Assembly (NCBI RefSeq): GCF_000009965.1
Contig: NC_006624.1
Location: 1,470,001 to 1,502,000 of the forward strand
From: Thermococcus kodakarensis KOD1
GTDB lineage: Archaea > Methanobacteriota_B > Thermococci > Thermococcales > Thermococcaceae
Reading direction: 5' to 3'
DNA length: 32,000 nucleotides
Shown here: one piece after another, positions 6,852-31,566 of the stretch
How the letters are laid out: every line of letters begins with the position of its first letter
Numbering within the stretch: position 1 is the first letter of the stretch
Position numbers and translations under genes: made by a program
The notes under the pieces: generated by a model
Seen by the model: the letters and a program-made list of their open reading frames with translations, nothing else
Database searches by the model: none
What the model was told of the DNA's origin: nothing

Positions 6852-6911
6852 ACCGATGAGGAGTGTCATCCCTCCTGATGTCGAGATGATGACATTATCC
6901 CCACCTGAGGT
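6852..6911 (+). ncRNA. Candidate C/D box sRNA (2'-O-methylation guide)
   Basis: The layout is C box ATGAGGA (6856-6862), a 12-nt guide GTGTCATCCCTC, D' CTGA (6875-6878), a 7-nt spacer, C' ATGATGA (6886-6892), a 12-nt guide CATTATCCCCAC, and D CTGA (6905-6908). Flanking acc/ggt can pair. The exact 12-nt spacing on both halves is the archaeal hallmark. Confidence 0.65.
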
Positions 6912-11859: not shown

Positions 11860-12591
11860 TCAAAACTCCTTTTCAGTTTTTTCAACGAGCTTTCTGAGGC
11901 CGTTGATTAGTTCATTCTCGTTTGAGGCCTTGGAGACGACGAGGGGTATCCTTTCACGTTCAGCAAGCTTGACCGCTAGCTCGTCTAACCTCTTGACGCC
12001 GTGCAGCACTATCACAGCTGGCTTAAGCCCCTGAACGCGGACTGCTATCATGGGGCTTCTGCCCGTGGTCACCTTTGTAAACACCAGTGCCCTCTCAGTA
12101 GTCCATCCGTAGAGCTTAAGAAATTCCTCGCTGCTCATCTCAAGGATCGCCCGTATGCTGTCAACCACCGTGTAACCGTAAATCTTTCTGTCGAGAAGGT
12201 CATGGTTTGCCGCAACCTCGCCCTTGACGGCCTCAACAACGGCTCTTATCGGAACGGGGACCGCAAACTCGCGAATATCGAGAATAGCATCCGTCGGAAG
12301 TTCGCCCTCGATGGTCTTGCTGAAGGCTCTTATGACGTTCCCGCCCCTTTTCTCATCAATTTCAATGAGGGCCTCAACGAACTTTCTTATCGTTGAAGCA
12401 CCGGGACTTTTTCTCCTCCCACCCTCATAATCGCTGATGACGGAGGATGAGACTCCAAGGTAATCCGCAAGCTCGGTCTGGCTTATCCCAAATATCTCGC
12501 GCCACTTTCTCATGGTCTTACCGGGGTCAGAAGAAAGTGTTATCTCTCCCGCGATCCTCTTGGCAAGGGCTTCCTTTTCTTTCTCCAGCAT
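11860..12591 (-). CDS. XRE-type HTH transcriptional regulator with a C-terminal conserved archaeal domain (COG1395-like)
   Basis: The HTH is ISQTELADYLGVSSSVISDYEGGRR, followed by a ~150 aa C-terminal domain. Confidence 0.8.
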   Translation of the reverse strand: MLEKEKEALAKRIAGEITLSSDPGKTMRKWREIFGISQTELADYLGVSSSVISDYEGGRRKSPGASTIRKFVEALIEIDEKRGGNVIRAFSKTIEGELPTDAILDIREFAVPVPIRAVVEAVKGEVAANHDLLDRKIYGYTVVDSIRAILEMSSEEFLKLYGWTTERALVFTKVTTGRSPMIAVRVQGLKPAVIVLHGVKRLDELAVKLAERERIPLVVSKASNENELINGLRKLVEKTEKEF

Positions 12592-12759: not shown

Positions 12760-13656
12760 GCGAGAAAGTTTTTAGAAAAAGCTTGACCAAAGAAACTTTG
12801 CTGGGCAAAGTTTCATCAAAGTTTGTGATGCTTGACTAAAGGGCTGTTTTGATAGGATTTTCCTTATTGAATGCTGTCTTGGGTTGTGAATTCTATTCTT
12901 ATTCGCTCGCTCTTTGTGAGTTTGCTTTTTAATTGACGCCCTACGGGCGTCAAAGTGAGAGAAACTCCTTTTTAGCTAGCATGTTTGAAGAATTCACTTA
13001 TTTTTTAGTTTGTTTATCGCGAAAATCCTGTAGAAGTGCAATTCTAAGAAGAACCACGAGCCTTGATCAAACTCAATGGGACTGTCGTCCCATGCGTTGA
13101 AGCAGAGCTTCAACGTCGCGCAGGAAGCTTTTAGACAAAAGCTTGACCAAAAGTGCGCCCTTCTTCTCGAACTTGCTCTTCGATGAGTATATGCTTGCTC
13201 AGAAAGCAAGTTCGCTTGGGTTTACTCCCAAAATCTCTCGTTAATTGTAATTTCGAACTTTCTTTTTAGCGCTCAAAGAGCGCTATACTGTGAGGAAATC
13301 CTGTAAATCTAGCAACTCGGTAAGTAAACCCACTCAAAAGCCAGCTCATTAAAAACGCATACTACTCTTCCGCCATCCTTCAAGGACGCTTGAACGACAG
13401 TGAAAGCGGCGCTGAAGCTTTTAGAAAAAGCTTCACCAAAAAGTTTGAATGTCCTCGAGAATTGGCTTGATTCGGATTCTATTCTCTTAGTAGGTGGCCA
13501 AATAAATGCGGGTTTTCTTCTTTTTAACGCTCTTCGAGCGTTATATCGTGAGTAAACCCCTTGAAAACCGCTGATTGATGACTGAGAATCACTGGAAAAC
13601 AGGAAGCTCAAAAGGACATTCTACTTTTGATGAAACTTTGCCCAGCAAAGTTTCTG
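12760..13656. repeat. Array of about 3 degenerate modular repeat units (220-360 bp) with two hairpin types, abutting the 3' end of tRNA-Ile
   Basis: AT-rich HindIII-type hairpins lie at 12765-12784, 13125-13144 and 13414-13434. GC-rich hairpins lie at 12934-12952, 13267-13285 and 13525-13543. The 30-nt hairpin element occurs at 12791-12820 and 13626-13655. There is no credible coding potential. Confidence 0.85.
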
Positions 13657-13734
13657 TGGTGGGCCCGCGGGGCTTCGAACCCCGGACCTCCCGCTTATCA
13701 GGCGGGCGCTCTGACCAGGCTGAGCCACGGGCCC
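13657..13734 (-). tRNA. tRNA-Ile (anticodon GAU), CCA encoded
   Basis: The reverse complement GGGCCCGTGGCTCAGCCTGGTCAGAGCGCCCGCCTGATAAGCGGGAGGTCCGGGGTTCGAAGCCCCGCGGGCCCACCA folds as a cloverleaf. The anticodon loop is CTGATAA. Confidence 0.97.
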
Positions 13735-13860: not shown

Positions 13861-14169
13861 CTTTTCGGCTCTCTGTGCCCCAGGTTGCCGCCGTACTTGA
13901 TGCACTCTTATGTTCTTTAACTTGGTGTTCCGATTTGAATATTTTAATTTAACTTTACTTTATGCCATTTTGTATTTGTTCGCCTCAGATTCCCAATATT
14001 GGCAATAACTGTTACTAAATGTCATGTATTTTAAAACAAATAAGTCAGTTCCCGCCGTTGAAAATTATTAACAACGCTATCTCACATAACTTATGTTAAG
14101 GAGTATGCAAAATTTTGGATGTTCTCTTTTGAATTTTGATTAATACACAATGTTGCGCAAGACTTATAA

Positions 14170-16224
<2,055 letters not shown>

Positions 16225-26487: not shown

Positions 26488-27027
26488 TCACGGGCTTCCG
26501 CATTCGCCTGCAACGGCCTCAAAGCTGAGCTGGAACTGATCCATGCCGAGGCTTGCGTTGGTGTTGTCAAAGATCATACCAACTGGCACGGGGTCTCCGT
26601 AGTTGACCGTGAACTCGAGGTTGTTTGACGGCCCTGCTATCGGACTGTCGTAGTCTCCTGCAAAGAGCAGGACGTTGTCGTGGTTGCTCTTTATGGTAAC
26701 ACAGATCGGATAGTTTGTCTGGTTGTTCTCCCAAAGGTCGTTGCTTACCTCGAACATTTCCTCAAAGACGTAGGTGGTGTTCGGGCTCATGCCCGTTCCG
26801 CCCCAGTCGGGGTGGTTCGGGTTATATTCGCTTATGTCCACGTAGAGCTTTCCAGCGTCGTAGGTCACGTAGGGCTGGAGTGCGGTCAGGTCAATAAGTT
26901 CGTTGTCGTCGGAGACGACATCGAAGCTCGCAGTCCTGTCGGCGGAGTAGTACCTAAAGTTAGCACCCGCGCCGACGGCCAGGAGCATTCCAACCATTAA
27001 CAATGCCAATCCAAATAGTTTATTCAT
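26488..27027 (-). CDS. Small secreted protein, paralog 1 (candidate fibre/pilin-like subunit; DUF1102-like by memory)
   Basis: The class-1 signal peptide is MNKLFGLALLMVGMLLAVGAGA, followed by NFRYYSADR. It shares DDNELIDLT, VDIS..NPN.P, FEVSNDLWE and a C-terminal GECGSP with the next gene. GGAGG is the RBS. Confidence 0.85.
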   Translation of the reverse strand: MNKLFGLALLMVGMLLAVGAGANFRYYSADRTASFDVVSDDNELIDLTALQPYVTYDAGKLYVDISEYNPNHPDWGGTGMSPNTTYVFEEMFEVSNDLWENNQTNYPICVTIKSNHDNVLLFAGDYDSPIAGPSNNLEFTVNYGDPVPVGMIFDNTNASLGMDQFQLSFEAVAGECGSP

Positions 27028-27041
27028 CTTTCATTCCTCCT

Positions 27042-27638
27042 TCACGGCTGACCGCAGTTTCCAGCTATCTCAGCGGGCTCTGTGCCGAGCCTGTAGGCTT
27101 CAATGTGTACCGCTGCGTTGTTGGTTGTACCTGGTGCGTCGTTCGCGACGGTAAAGTCCATACCGACCTTAACCGCGTCTCCGTTGTTCACAACAAAGCA
27201 GACGTCGTTCCTCGCCATGTCGCTGGCGTAAACTGTCTGGCCGGTTGTGCTGTCGTGGACGTCAAACTCATGTCCGTAGAACTGGATCATGGTGTTGTCG
27301 CTGGTTATCCTTACGACTATCGGCATTCCCTCTTCCCATAGGTCGTTGCTGACTTCAAACACTTCATCGAAGTTGTACTCTGAGTTCGGGCTCAGGCCCA
27401 TTCCATATCCTGGGTAGTTCGGGTTGTTCGGGCTTATGTCCACAACTAGGACGCCGCCATCGTTAATGTACGCGTAGGGCTGAATTGGAGTCAGATCGAT
27501 GAGCTCGTTGTCATCGGTCACGATGTTCCAATGAACGCTCCTGTCCGCGTTGTAGTCCCTGAAGTTAGCTCCAGCCCCCAAAACGAGGCCAAAGGCCACC
27601 AACAGGCCAAAAATTCCCAAAGCAAGATTCTTTTTCAT
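27042..27638 (-). CDS. Small secreted protein, paralog 2 (candidate fibre/pilin-like subunit)
   Basis: MKKNLALGIFGLLVAFGLVLGAGA is followed by NFRDYNADR, and the C-terminus is GNCGQP. The GGAGG RBS lies at 27645-27650 (minus strand). The 42-codon N-terminal extension in the track ORF is not credible. Confidence 0.85.
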   Translation of the reverse strand: MKKNLALGIFGLLVAFGLVLGAGANFRDYNADRSVHWNIVTDDNELIDLTPIQPYAYINDGGVLVVDISPNNPNYPGYGMGLSPNSEYNFDEVFEVSNDLWEEGMPIVVRITSDNTMIQFYGHEFDVHDSTTGQTVYASDMARNDVCFVVNNGDAVKVGMDFTVANDAPGTTNNAAVHIEAYRLGTEPAEIAGNCGQP

Positions 27639-28545: not shown

Positions 28546-28944
28546 TCTCTCACCTTCTTGTAATTACATGATTTAAAAATGAGACATCATTCTCAACAAG
28601 TTACTAAAATCCCACTTAACACCTATTAGGCGCACCTCCTTAAAAGGGTTCTTAAAAAGTTCGATTTGCGCGCTTTTTAGTCCTGAAACAGTTTTTTGAT
28701 GGCAAATTATGGGAAAAGTCCAACAGTTGGGCTGCAAGAATAAACCCCTGCCCATTGGGTTCTGCAGTTAAATATCCCCTGAGCTTCTCCCACTGGGAGC
28801 TAAGAGGACATTACTTAAACTAGAAAACAACAAAAACTTCAGGGGATTTCCAACTGCAGGGACATAGTATAGTTATTTTCCAGAAGGGGGATTACAAAGG
28901 AGAGTAAAACACGGGGTTCGAAGTTCATCTGGAGCCCAGTTGAA

Positions 28945-29112: not shown

Positions 29113-29190
29113 GGGCCGGTGGCCTAGTCTGGACGGGGCGTCGGCCTTCGGAGCCGAAGGTCCCGGGTTCAAATCCCGGCCGGCCCGCCA
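29113..29190 (+). tRNA. tRNA-Arg (anticodon UCG), CCA encoded
   Basis: The sequence is GGGCCGGTGGCCTAGTCTGGACGGGGCGTCGGCCTTCGGAGCCGAAGGTCCCGGGTTCAAATCCCGGCCGGCCCGCCA, with anticodon loop CTTCGGA. Confidence 0.97.
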
Positions 29191-29637
29191 TAGAAACTTT
29201 GCTGGGCAAAGTTTCATCAAAAATCGAATGTCCTTTTGAGTGCCCAGCTTTTCAGTGATTCTCACCATAAATTGGAAATCCTCAAGGGGTTTGCTCGCAG
29301 TATAACGCCCGAAAGGCGTTAAAAATAAGAAAACCCCTATTCATCTGCAAATTTGTCATGAGAATCCCAATTCTCAGCCAATATCACGAAGACATTCAAG
29401 CTTTTGGTGAAGCTTTTTTCCAAAAGCTTCAGCGCCGCTTTCACTAGCGTTCAAGCGTCCTTAACGGATGGCGGAAGAGTAGTATGCGTTTTTAATGAGC
29501 TGGCTTTTGAGCGGGTTTACTTATCTAGTTGCTAGATTTACAGGATTTCCTCACAGTATAGCGCTCAAAGAGCGCTAAAAAGAAAGGTGAAATCGCAATT
29601 ACCAAGAGATTTTGAGAACAAACCCGCGCAAAGCTGG
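29191..29637. repeat. Two modular hairpin repeat units abutting the tRNA-Arg 3' end; inverted copy of 13210-13656
   Basis: The 30-nt element lies at 29192-29221, GC hairpins at 29303-29321 and 29558-29574, and an AT hairpin at 29409-29430. The block 29401-29585 is roughly 90-95% identical (by eye) to the reverse complement of 13258-13445. Confidence 0.85.
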
Positions 29638-29703
29638 AGAAGTTTGAGCAGAGATTAAACTTCTCCACTTTCTTTCAACGTTAGGGGGAGAAAATATCAA
29701 AAA

Positions 29704-30737: not shown

Positions 30738-31145
30738 ATGATGAAAATCTATGACATTCCCCCACAGGGAAGGGAGAAAATAAAAGTGAAAATTCAAGAA
30801 GCCCTCATGAGAAGAGAGGAAGTTATATTTGCTTATCTCCATGGTTCTTTCATCGAAGATAGGCCGTTCAGAGACATTGATGTAGCCGTTTACGTGAAGG
30901 AGAAGCTAGATATATTCTATGAAATGACGCTGGAGGATGAACTTACTGAACTAACGGGGTTTCCCGTTGACGTCCGGGTTCTGAACGAGGCCCCTATTAC
31001 TTTCAGGTTTAAGGTCATAGGCGGAGAACTACTGTTCTCGAAGGATGAAAAAGCAAGGTGCAGGTTCGAGGAAGAGACCATGGCAGAGTACCACGATTAC
31101 TCCTACTACCTCGAACTCTACGGGAGGGAGGCCCTTGGAATATGA
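30738..31145 (+). CDS. Minimal nucleotidyltransferase (MNT/MntA-type antitoxin, Pol-beta superfamily)
   Basis: The GS-x(n)-DxD motif is present (LHGSFIEDRPFRDIDVAVYV). The product is 135 aa and is followed immediately by a HEPN gene. Confidence 0.88.
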   Translation: MMKIYDIPPQGREKIKVKIQEALMRREEVIFAYLHGSFIEDRPFRDIDVAVYVKEKLDIFYEMTLEDELTELTGFPVDVRVLNEAPITFRFKVIGGELLFSKDEKARCRFEEETMAEYHDYSYYLELYGREALGI

Positions 31146-31167
31146 TAGGGACAGAGTAACGAGGCTG

Positions 31168-31566
31168 ATGGGAGAAGCCAAGAATGCCCTTTTCAACATC
31201 CATGAACTTGCAGAGCTTGATGAAGAAGAGTTTCTAAGGAACAAGCATTACATATCTAGCGCAAAGTACAATCTTCTGGTTGCAATTGAGGCATGCATAG
31301 ACATTGCGTATCACCTGATATCAAAAAACAAACTGAGACTACCGAAAGACTACTCGGACGCGTTTAAGGTTCTCCAGGAAAACAATGTTATAAGCAATGA
31401 ACTGGCACGCCGCCTTATCTTAATGGCTCGTTTTAGAAACAGACTTGTGCATATATACTGGGACATTGATGACAGGATGATATACAGAATCATAACCGAA
31501 AACATAACTGATATAGAGAAGTTCTTAGAGCACATCCGTAAAATCCTCGGAGGGGATAACAAATGA
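31168..31566 (+). CDS. HEPN-domain protein (DUF86/HepT-type toxin)
   Basis: Carries the R-x4-H motif RNRLVHIY. The ATG at 31168 is the first Met after the MNT stop. A TTG at 31135 (LEYDRDRVTRL...) is a plausible true start overlapping the MNT 3' end. Confidence 0.85.
   Translation: MGEAKNALFNIHELAELDEEEFLRNKHYISSAKYNLLVAIEACIDIAYHLISKNKLRLPKDYSDAFKVLQENNVISNELARRLILMARFRNRLVHIYWDIDDRMIYRIITENITDIEKFLEHIRKILGGDNK

Follow-up and report, generated by a model that had tools for sequence, protein, structure and literature searches.

What are the repeated, hairpin-rich blocks that lie directly behind two tRNA genes of Thermococcus kodakarensis KOD1: sources of a folded RNA, signals that serve the adjoining tRNA genes, or repeats that are maintained and shuffled as DNA? 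We addressed this question in a 32,000-nt stretch of the chromosome (NC_006624.1, positions 1,470,001 to 1,502,000 of the forward strand; hereafter the window, whose numbering is used unless a genome position is given), which holds one block at 12760-13656 (region A) and another at 29191-29640 (region B). The reading we favour, to which we give a probability of roughly 0.55, is that both belong to a DNA-level repeat family tied to tRNA 3’ flanks, similar in kind to repetitive extragenic palindromes (REP) and bacterial interspersed mosaic elements (BIME) or to miniature inverted-repeat transposable elements (MITE), which spreads and is homogenised by recombination at or between its hairpins; transcription termination and stray promoters would be side effects of this organization, and inversion of genome segments a consequence. 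What sets the family apart is that it is found almost only at tRNA 3’ ends and that two hairpin classes alternate within it. A literature search found no description of it in Thermococcales, and it is apparently both undescribed and genus-wide in Thermococcus.

The units share a common plan. Each begins with an AT-rich boundary hairpin of the GAAACTTTGC, CAAACTTCGC or GAAGCTTTT type, followed by AYCAARG and boxes of the GTGATTC or GAATGTCC type, and continues through a T-rich arm, a central perfect GC hairpin of 6-9 bp (mostly 7 bp) and a mirror arm to a second boundary hairpin; adjoining units meet at these boundary hairpins and share them. A preliminary description of this DNA, made from the letters alone, had listed hairpins that are all present, with one, the second AGCGCTC/GAGCGCT hairpin, misplaced by 1-3 nt (at 29558-29574; its true position is 29559-29577). 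The AT hairpins GAAGCTTTT/AAAAGCTTC lie at 13414-13434 and 29409-29430, with weaker copies at 13125-13144 and 12765-12784, and the modular spacing that had been claimed is seen in the recurrence of the AT hairpin with its CACCAAA flank at 360 and 289 bp (repeat family D7). The other GC hairpins are (T)GACGCCC-TAC-GGGCGTC(A) at 12934-12952, (T)AGCGCTC-AAA-GAGCGCT(A) at 13267-13285, (T)AACGCTC-TTC-GAGCGTT(A) at 13525-13543 and (T)AACGCC-CGAAA-GGCGTT(A) at 29303-29321. Three further features had been missed. There is a third hairpin type, H1, a perfect palindrome GAAACTTTGC-N3-GCAAAGTTTC found at 12792, 13632 and 29193, and two of these three start 2 nt past a tRNA CCA, one behind the minus-strand gene for tRNA-Ile and the other behind the plus-strand gene for tRNA-Arg. 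Each GC hairpin is the midpoint of an imperfect palindrome of 240-310 bp bounded by AT-rich hairpins, with self reverse-complement matches at 12886-12997, 13182-13370, 29208-29416 and 29506-29632. Finally, 13211-13659 and 29188-29632 are inverted copies of one another, 83% identical over 453 aligned positions, and these arms flank 15.4 kb of sequence (TK1689 to TK1706).

Region A is made of three units in the order H2-H1-[alpha]-H2-[beta]-H2-[alpha’]-H1-tRNA-Ile. It opens with a degenerate, AT-rich hairpin of the H2 type (12765-12784, repeat family D7), whose loop TTTTTAGAAAA stands after GAGAAAG, and with an H1 hairpin, GAAACTTTGC-TGG-GCAAAGTTTC, that has a perfect 10-bp stem and is followed by ATCAAAGTTTGTGAT (12792-12814; repeat families D15 and I4). 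This H1 forms one end of unit alpha (12792-13090), an imperfect palindrome of approximately 282-299 bp centred on the GC hairpin TGACGCCC-TAC-GGGCGTCA (12934-12952), the right end of which is degenerate and carries small hairpins at 13078-13091 and 13096-13114. Unit beta (13125-13434) runs from boundary hairpin H2b, AAGCTTTT-AGAC-AAAAGCTT followed by GACCAAAAG (13125-13144, also in family D7), to H2c, GAAGCTTTT-AGA-AAAAGCTTC followed by ACCAAAAAGTTTGAATGTCC (13414-13434); the midpoint of this imperfect palindrome is TAGCGCTC-AAA-GAGCGCTA (13267-13285), and the unit contains, at 13330-13413 in minus-strand reading, a module consisting of AGCGC, a 34-nt insert, TGGCGGAAGAG and, further on, GCGTTTTTAA. 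Unit alpha’ (13414-13654) is an imperfect palindrome of 241 bp with its centre, TAACGCTC-TTC-GAGCGTTA, at 13525-13543, and it ends in the H1 hairpin at 13632-13654, 2 nt past the CCA of tRNA-Ile(GAT) (TKt30, 13657-13734, minus strand). Region B has two units in the order tRNA-Arg-H1-[alpha’]-H2-[beta]. It abuts the 3’ end of tRNA-Arg(TCG) (29113-29190, plus strand) and comprises a second copy of alpha’ (29193-29430, with H1 at 29193-29215, the centre TAACGCC-CGAAA-GGCGTTA at 29303-29321 and H2 at 29409-29430) and a second copy of beta (29431-29640, centred on TAGCGCTC-AAA-GAGCGCTA at 29559-29577), which is 89% identical to 13413-13211.

Further copies, for which the preliminary description had proposed a search, do exist. 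In a scan of one genome per species, which did not return KOD1 itself, the exact H1 pattern was found at 59 loci, about 47 of them in about 16 metagenome-assembled genomes (MAGs) of Thermococcus or other Thermococcaceae, several of which have many copies (L numbers below denote individual stretches of DNA compared with the window); cultured species also carry the family, and the matches beyond Thermococcaceae are isolated ones in unrelated bacteria. The flank, open reading frame (ORF) and repeat statistics given below are drawn from 8-kb loci around these H1 matches. Unit alpha has 13 full-length homologues that align from end to end, and homologues of unit beta are present at L083, L060, L040, L046, L024 and L019. 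When a 90-nt end profile was applied and facing ends were then paired, 27 units could be placed (26 distinct, since two loci are identical), with lengths of 270-345 bp, mostly 294-309 bp. An alignment of 39 ends shows that the units terminate in inverted repeats of about 41 nt, made up of the hairpin and ATCAAAGTTYGTGATTC, and the variants of the boundary hairpin (GAAACTTTGC, CAAACTTCGC, GAAACTTTTGC, GAAGCTTTT and CAAGCTTT) are all perfectly paired. Among cultured organisms, T. nautili has the order tRNA-Gly(CCC)-H1’-alpha-H2-beta upstream of its homologue of TK1688, and both T. peptonophilus and strain JCM 11816 have units behind tRNA-Ile.

The position of the units is as regular as their form. 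The tRNA genes beside the matches represent at least 17 isoacceptor types, and the first hairpin lies 0-10 nt past the CCA of the last tRNA gene of its cluster. Of the 53 exact copies of H1, 16 have a tRNA 3’ end no more than 10 nt away and another 18 are separated from one by exactly one unit (230-400 nt), while several of the remainder sit deeper within arrays. When about 50 trailers of terminal tRNAs were taken regardless of hairpin content, approximately 38 opened with an H-type hairpin and AYCAARG, 7 opened with a short related hairpin, CAGCCCTTTGC-TTC-GCAAAGCGCTG, followed by GCGGAAG, which is a beta-type start, and approximately 5 were unrelated; these figures for association with tRNA genes are biased upward because the loci were chosen for the presence of H1, although many of the positive terminal tRNAs bear the H1’ variant, which is out of reach of the search pattern. 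The trailers of KOD1 tRNA-Gln, tRNA-Lys (L002, L009) and tRNA-Gly (L004) are unrelated. A cbf5-like gene is followed directly by a unit in five MAGs; H1 at the stop codon of this gene means that the family is not strictly limited to tRNA genes. At L007 (817-839), as at L028, L036, L052 and L055, H1 overlaps the stop codon of the cbf5-like pseudouridine synthase, with a full unit next to it.

Location at tRNA 3’ ends invites the explanation that the units are scars of proviruses or plasmids, that is, remnants of attachment (att) sites or decayed provirus ends, since integrative elements of Thermococcus enter tRNA genes (Cossu et al. 2017, PMC5495485). We consider this very improbable. Each unit is flanked by a tRNA CCA plus 0-10 nt on one side and by one of a few family modules on the other; homology between copies starts past the CCA, with no duplicated tRNA segment, no tRNA fragment at the distal end and no 3’ part of a tRNA repeated in the manner of an att-site direct repeat. 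Viral contigs and the phage and plasmid collections hold no copy, the flanks contain no integrase fragments or mobile-element genes, and the same element stands behind at least 17 isoacceptor types.

Comparison of related copies points instead to turnover of whole units and of patches within them, as the DNA-level reading would have it. In MAG S013_maxbin2, tRNA-Arg(GCG) and tRNA-Asp(GTC) are followed, on two contigs, by a 350-bp block whose two copies are 100% identical (L004 6370-6747 and L039 3838-3460). It runs from a beta-start module through H1, alpha and H1’ as far as the CCA; its flanks are homologous but diverged, and other copies in that genome are 60-80% alike. Such a pattern is the signature of a conversion tract or of a very recent copy. 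Between KOD1 and JCM 11816 (L083), region A differs at 8.3% of positions, and about 55 of the 75 differences fall within 12862-13037, the core of alpha, which is 31% diverged in a patch symmetric about the GC hairpin; the difference over 13100-13656 is about 1%, and that in the flanking genes 3-4%. This patch has the appearance of a gene conversion tract donated by another member of the family. Inversion of the alpha core (flip-flop) was considered as its source and rejected: 180 positions match in the same orientation and 126 after reverse complementation. At the orthologous tRNA-Ile gene, KOD1 has alpha’-beta-alpha and T. peptonophilus has beta-alpha’, with all of its units in the same orientation, and exactly one unit has been gained or lost at a hairpin junction. 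A 560-bp H1-bounded block present at L047 is likewise absent from L033, which has only half of the next unit. Both of these sites of gain or loss are mosaics, not clean empty sites. Under the favoured reading, units would be copied, lost and patch-converted between tRNA flanks through recombination at hairpin junctions or within homologous units.

The same places coincide with changes in gene order. The TK1688 homologue adjoins tRNA-Ile/Glu and the subtilisin gene Tk-SP in KOD1, T. peptonophilus and JCM 11816. In T. stetteri it adjoins tRNA-Arg, tRNA-Gln and the DUF7344/DUF1102 genes, which correspond to the far end of the KOD1 15.4-kb segment reversed, so that at least the tRNA-Arg-proximal 5-6 kb of the segment is in the opposite orientation (L061 4800-6000). 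The recovered inversion junction in T. stetteri falls inside the repeat module directly behind tRNA-Arg; on the other side the epimerase gene is followed by H2-alpha’ and then by the contig end, and thus one inversion junction is covered. In T. nautili the TK1688 homologue lies behind tRNA-Gly and alpha-beta, and in T. henrietii it is without the element. Synteny between MAGs also ends inside units. These comparisons show that the dispersed inverted copies mark the places at which gene order is broken and segments are inverted between Thermococcus genomes. Cossu et al. 2017 (PMC5495485) report that Thermococcus inversions break at opposed pairs of tRNA genes and that 100 bp or more of inverted identity suffices; the passages of that paper found by keyword hold the tRNA genes as such, together with the pTN3 integrase, responsible for the inversions and mention no repeat family. 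The T. stetteri and MAG breakpoints at units agree with those tRNA-pair breakpoints. Inverted homologous segments at opposed tRNA genes are common to both accounts, but here most of the shared homology is contributed by the 240-550 bp that follow the tRNA genes.

The pairing of the hairpins is visible in the sequences. Folded as single strands, the KOD1 units have z-scores of -3.6 to -4.9 against dinucleotide shuffles (alpha -3.63, beta -3.94, alpha’ -4.89). In 22 of 32 units a perfect stem of at least 7 bp is found no more than about 4 nt from the midpoint, a length reached by 2.6% of shuffles, and at least 10 different perfect 7-bp stems occupy the homologous central position, among them GCGCTCC, GACGCCC, AACGCCC, AGCGCTC, AACGCTC, GGCGTCC and CGCGCCC. 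For the tRNA-proximal hairpin (n=36), 95.3% of the cells of the alignment are paired, and three of the ten pairs show two-sided changes (C:G/G:C 16:16, T:A/C:G 22:14, and G:C to A:T); none of 500 shuffles reached the observed covariation score, and sliding the partner destroys the pairing. The number of independent covariation events is small because the changes mostly separate two or three subfamilies. The proposal that stems are kept while their sequence changes thus holds for the tRNA-proximal hairpin and for the central stems, but the five KOD1 hairpins on which it was first based largely represent a few subfamily classes and not many independent events. The observed stems are Watson-Crick paired except for one T-G in JCM 11816, most having been pre-selected as perfect hairpins. 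In a six-copy alignment of alpha’ (13414-13654 in region A), the paired boxes GAATGTCC/GGACATTC, GATTCTC/GAGAATC, GGGTTT/AAACCC and TAACGC/GCGTTA almost never vary, and such near-invariant pairs are neither for nor against an RNA fold. Concerted evolution of the palindrome arms was rejected, the left arm matching the reverse-complemented right arm with an identity of 0.55 within units and 0.54 between units.

That the units give rise to small structured RNAs had been one suggestion of the preliminary description, which thought of co-transcription as tRNA trailers; in a wider form of this explanation, the RNAs could also come from promoters of their own. Two orphan small RNA (sRNA) start sites enriched by terminator exonuclease (TEX) treatment, at genome positions 1482800(+) and 1499347(+) (Table S6 of Jager et al. 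2014, PMC4247193), do lie inside units, and this, together with the covarying stems and with predicted folds that are significantly more stable than shuffles, is what speaks for it. The two sites are at non-equivalent places, however. The first, 12800(+) in the window, is inside H1. The H2 loop TTTTTAGAAAA lies about 23 nt upstream of this site and, with the preceding GAGAAAG, is plausibly a transcription factor B recognition element (BRE) and TATA element, as read from the letters. The second, 29347(+), is about 20 nt past TAAAAATAAG, which itself follows a GC hairpin. One transcript would thus run from an end hairpin inward and the other from the centre outward, and Table S6 (PMC4247193) reports no start site at the homologous positions of the sister copies. 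Because the start sites are non-equivalent and the sister copies are without any, we take them to reflect adventitious promoters in DNA that is rich in A and T: its loops and flanks would mimic BRE/TATA elements and give rise to stray promoters, from which the two orphan sRNAs start.

The structured-RNA explanation meets other difficulties as well. Rfam searches returned nothing beyond tRNAs and the snoRNA sR55 in the window, and nothing credible in either region at E values up to 10. Being palindromic, the units fold equally well on both strands; unit order and number vary between close relatives; the stems seen are Watson-Crick save for the single T-G pair, though most had been selected as perfect hairpins; and the authors of the transcriptome themselves considered AU-rich orphan RNAs unlikely to fold stably at 85 C (PMC4247193). 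We consider a structured RNA family improbable. The signal would reside instead in the DNA, as palindromes able to form hairpins or cruciforms with conserved outer half-sites. Two more orphan-sRNA start sites fall in the window, 1498860(-) at window position 28860, just downstream of tRNA-Gln, and 1483882(+) at 13882, upstream of Tk-SP; the DNA there is free of family modules. The one published sRNA cluster that was checked for a copy, at 1504016/1504068 of KOD1, is unrelated DNA.

A stronger competitor holds that the units are host-selected elements of the tRNA 3’ flank, in which the hairpin and a U-tract some 20-45 nt further on define pre-tRNA 3’ processing and termination and the mirror half stops converging transcription; units would then be conserved because they are functional and not because they spread. 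At about 38 of about 50 terminal tRNAs the hairpin lies 0-10 nt from the CCA, two-sided changes have left its pairing intact, and the unit also abuts the cbf5-like stop codon in five MAGs. A conserved T4-T6 run follows GTGATTCC or GAATGTCC about 20 nt past the first hairpin, T-runs also precede the central hairpin, and the strand that reads inward is enriched in them on both arms (35.8% T and 23.7% A, with 134 runs of T4 or longer against 56 of A4 or longer). Archaeal RNA polymerase is established to terminate at oligo-T tracts, and since T-runs are met first on either inward strand, each unit could stop transcription both ways. Against host selection, the elements are not universal, the trailers of KOD1 tRNA-Gln, of tRNA-Lys at L002 and L009 and of tRNA-Gly at L004 being unrelated; arrays of two or three units, shifting unit order and conversion patches exceed the needs of a terminator; and internal promoter activity is unexpected in an insulator. 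We hold this main rival to be possible but rather doubtful. In the DNA-level reading the same property is retained as a side effect: units placed behind tRNA genes, which are heavily transcribed, could halt RNA polymerase arriving from either side.

Several results weigh against the reading we favour. Among the about 47 loci there is no longer version that carries an ORF, no pair of ends more than 600 bp apart and no repeated ORF. Unit placements with paired ends show no target-site duplication and no flanking direct repeat, the 8-kb loci contain no transposase or recombinase gene, and neither region A nor the H1 and H1’ patterns have a match in plasmid, phage or viral collections; with no target duplication, transposase or plasmid or viral copy, the route of spread is unproven. 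All of the observations could be due, with no mobility at all, to homologous recombination or gene conversion between flanks of similar tRNA genes, the tRNA similarity serving as anchor, and the strict position on the CCA side and the hairpin conservation at most tRNA clusters fit host tRNA 3’ processing or termination equally well. The near-equality of arm identity within and between units (0.55 and 0.54) implies that the hairpins and a few boxes, and not the long palindrome, are under constraint, and the upward bias in the tRNA-association figures belongs with these points. Repeated DNA in the MAG loci is limited to 150-1400 bp around the tRNA genes, and the neighbouring ORFs are housekeeping genes.

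A more specific form of movement can be imagined, in which the units are hairpin-delimited cassettes that a putative structure-specific recombinase inserts and excises at hairpin junctions, the hairpin behind the CCA acting as the attachment site in an archaeal counterpart of REP-RAYT (REP-associated tyrosine transposase) systems or of integron attC sites. Such cassettes, in place of the tRNA genes or a plasmid integrase, would be the main substrate of chromosome flipping in Thermococcales, and their symmetric U-tracts would keep tRNA termination intact after inversion. We regard this as unlikely.

REP and BIME elements of Enterobacteria and Pseudomonas (linked to RAYT/TnpA-REP) are likewise dispersed extragenic palindromes behind genes, form mosaics with linkers and have stems that drift in sequence, with termination, transcript stabilisation and recombination sites as side effects. 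The likeness to them that had been noted before is upheld as far as extragenic hairpins in alternating orientation behind genes are concerned (here behind tRNA genes and the cbf5-like gene), but not in its other marks: a GTAG-type 5’ tetranucleotide is absent from the alignment of 39 ends, where the boundary hairpins are perfect palindromes that measure 21-25 nt and are flanked by AYCAARG, and the RAYT-like transposase for which a search had been proposed has no counterpart in the 8-kb loci. Unlike REP and BIME, moreover, the Thermococcus family is archaeal, has a unit ten times larger (about 300 bp), is built of two hairpin classes (AT-rich at the ends, GC at the centre) and is found almost exclusively at tRNA 3’ ends. 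It also has the form of a MITE, with inverted ends of about 41 nt, a small uniform size and no ORF. It does not resemble the IS200/IS605-derived PATE, whose two subterminal hairpins share one orientation and lack an outer inverted repeat, and which inserts 3’ of a constant tetra- or pentanucleotide: in the Thermococcus units the two ends have inverted sequence outside their hairpins, and the outer flanks carry no fixed short motif.

Correia elements of Neisseria and the ERIC/IRU, BOX and RUP repeats are modular sequences of 100-300 bp without an ORF that have inverted ends, fold back on themselves and carry promoters and terminators that act on their neighbours. The Thermococcus units are like them in being ORF-free and modular, with inverted ends and strong fold-back. 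Correia elements and most MITEs have a TA target duplication and a cognate insertion sequence (IS) family, neither of which is seen for the Thermococcus units in the loci searched, and we know of none among Correia, ERIC/IRU, BOX and RUP that is tied to tRNA 3’ ends. In archaea, the MJRE of Methanocaldococcus jannaschii and the SM-type MITEs of Sulfolobus are non-coding, palindromic, multi-copy, intergenic and old, with low pairwise identity, and the Sulfolobus MITEs have identifiable parent IS elements. To our knowledge, neither has been reported as linked to tRNA genes or as having alternating hairpin classes; the comparison with our family is by description only and not by sequence. Correia elements appear in the reference list of PMC11602168.

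Several other candidates were set aside. The H2 pattern had 17 matches in viral contigs (L065-L081), all GC-rich and in otherwise unrelated DNA, which we treat as coincidence. A 26-mer, AAGCTTTTTGGAAAAAGCTTCACCAA, equal to the Thermococcus H2 plus CACCAA motif, occurs at L069 954-979 and 1825-1850, just past a terminator-like hairpin; the one region tested matches plasmids of Komagataeibacter/Novacetimonas (Acetobacteraceae), and its recurrence in viral contigs is probably coincidence or convergence. tRNA mimicry, with H2 plus ACCA as a minihelix and GTTCGTGATTC as a T-arm, was dropped, ATCA being commoner than ACCA and the match being poor. An origin (oriC with origin recognition boxes, ORB), a dif/Xer site and CRISPR were dismissed on sequence form.

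Among the extragenic repeats of prokaryotes, a family with such ties to tRNA 3’ ends would be an unusual case, and this one bears on several earlier observations in Thermococcales. Their genomes are scrambled, with known breakpoints at tRNA genes, and modules of 240-550 bp behind most tRNA clusters offer a concrete substrate for inversion. The family could account for at least two AU-rich orphan sRNAs considered to be found only in T. kodakarensis, the two start sites checked being inside units. It also explains the breaks of short-read assemblies at array sites. Two such assemblies, independent of each other, break within region B, that of T. stetteri at L082 position 4826 and that of KOD1 at L085, which starts 167 nt past the epimerase gene, the outer neighbour of region B. 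The repeats hinder assembly, and draft genomes may therefore under-represent copies. KOD1 is genetically tractable.

The surroundings of the arrays in KOD1 agree with their description as non-coding. TK1688, an ORF for a helix-turn-helix (HTH) regulator, lies at 11860-12591 (genome 1481860-1482591) and TKt30 at genome 1483657-1483734, both from the RefSeq gene table in the supplement of Jager et al. 2014, and RefSeq lists no gene between them. The repeat region has short ORFs only, none with a Pfam match, and the non-coding status claimed at the outset is thereby borne out. Its GC content is 0.38-0.42, against about 0.5-0.59 for the adjoining genes.

Other features of the window were noted in passing. 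The subtilisin gene at 14170-16224 is Tk-SP, the C-terminal part of which (PPC domains, 15348-16150) contains internal repeats of 360-411 bp. Two DUF1102 paralogues stand side by side at 26729-27523, with a repeat offset of 605 bp, and the C/D-box sRNA sR55 lies between two protein genes at 6852-6910 on the plus strand (75.6 bits in Rfam). The epimerase gene is adjoined by a nucleotidyltransferase (Polbeta) and HepT-like pair (30738-31566 in the window, 1202-2030 in L085), which is a typical MNT/HEPN toxin-antitoxin module.

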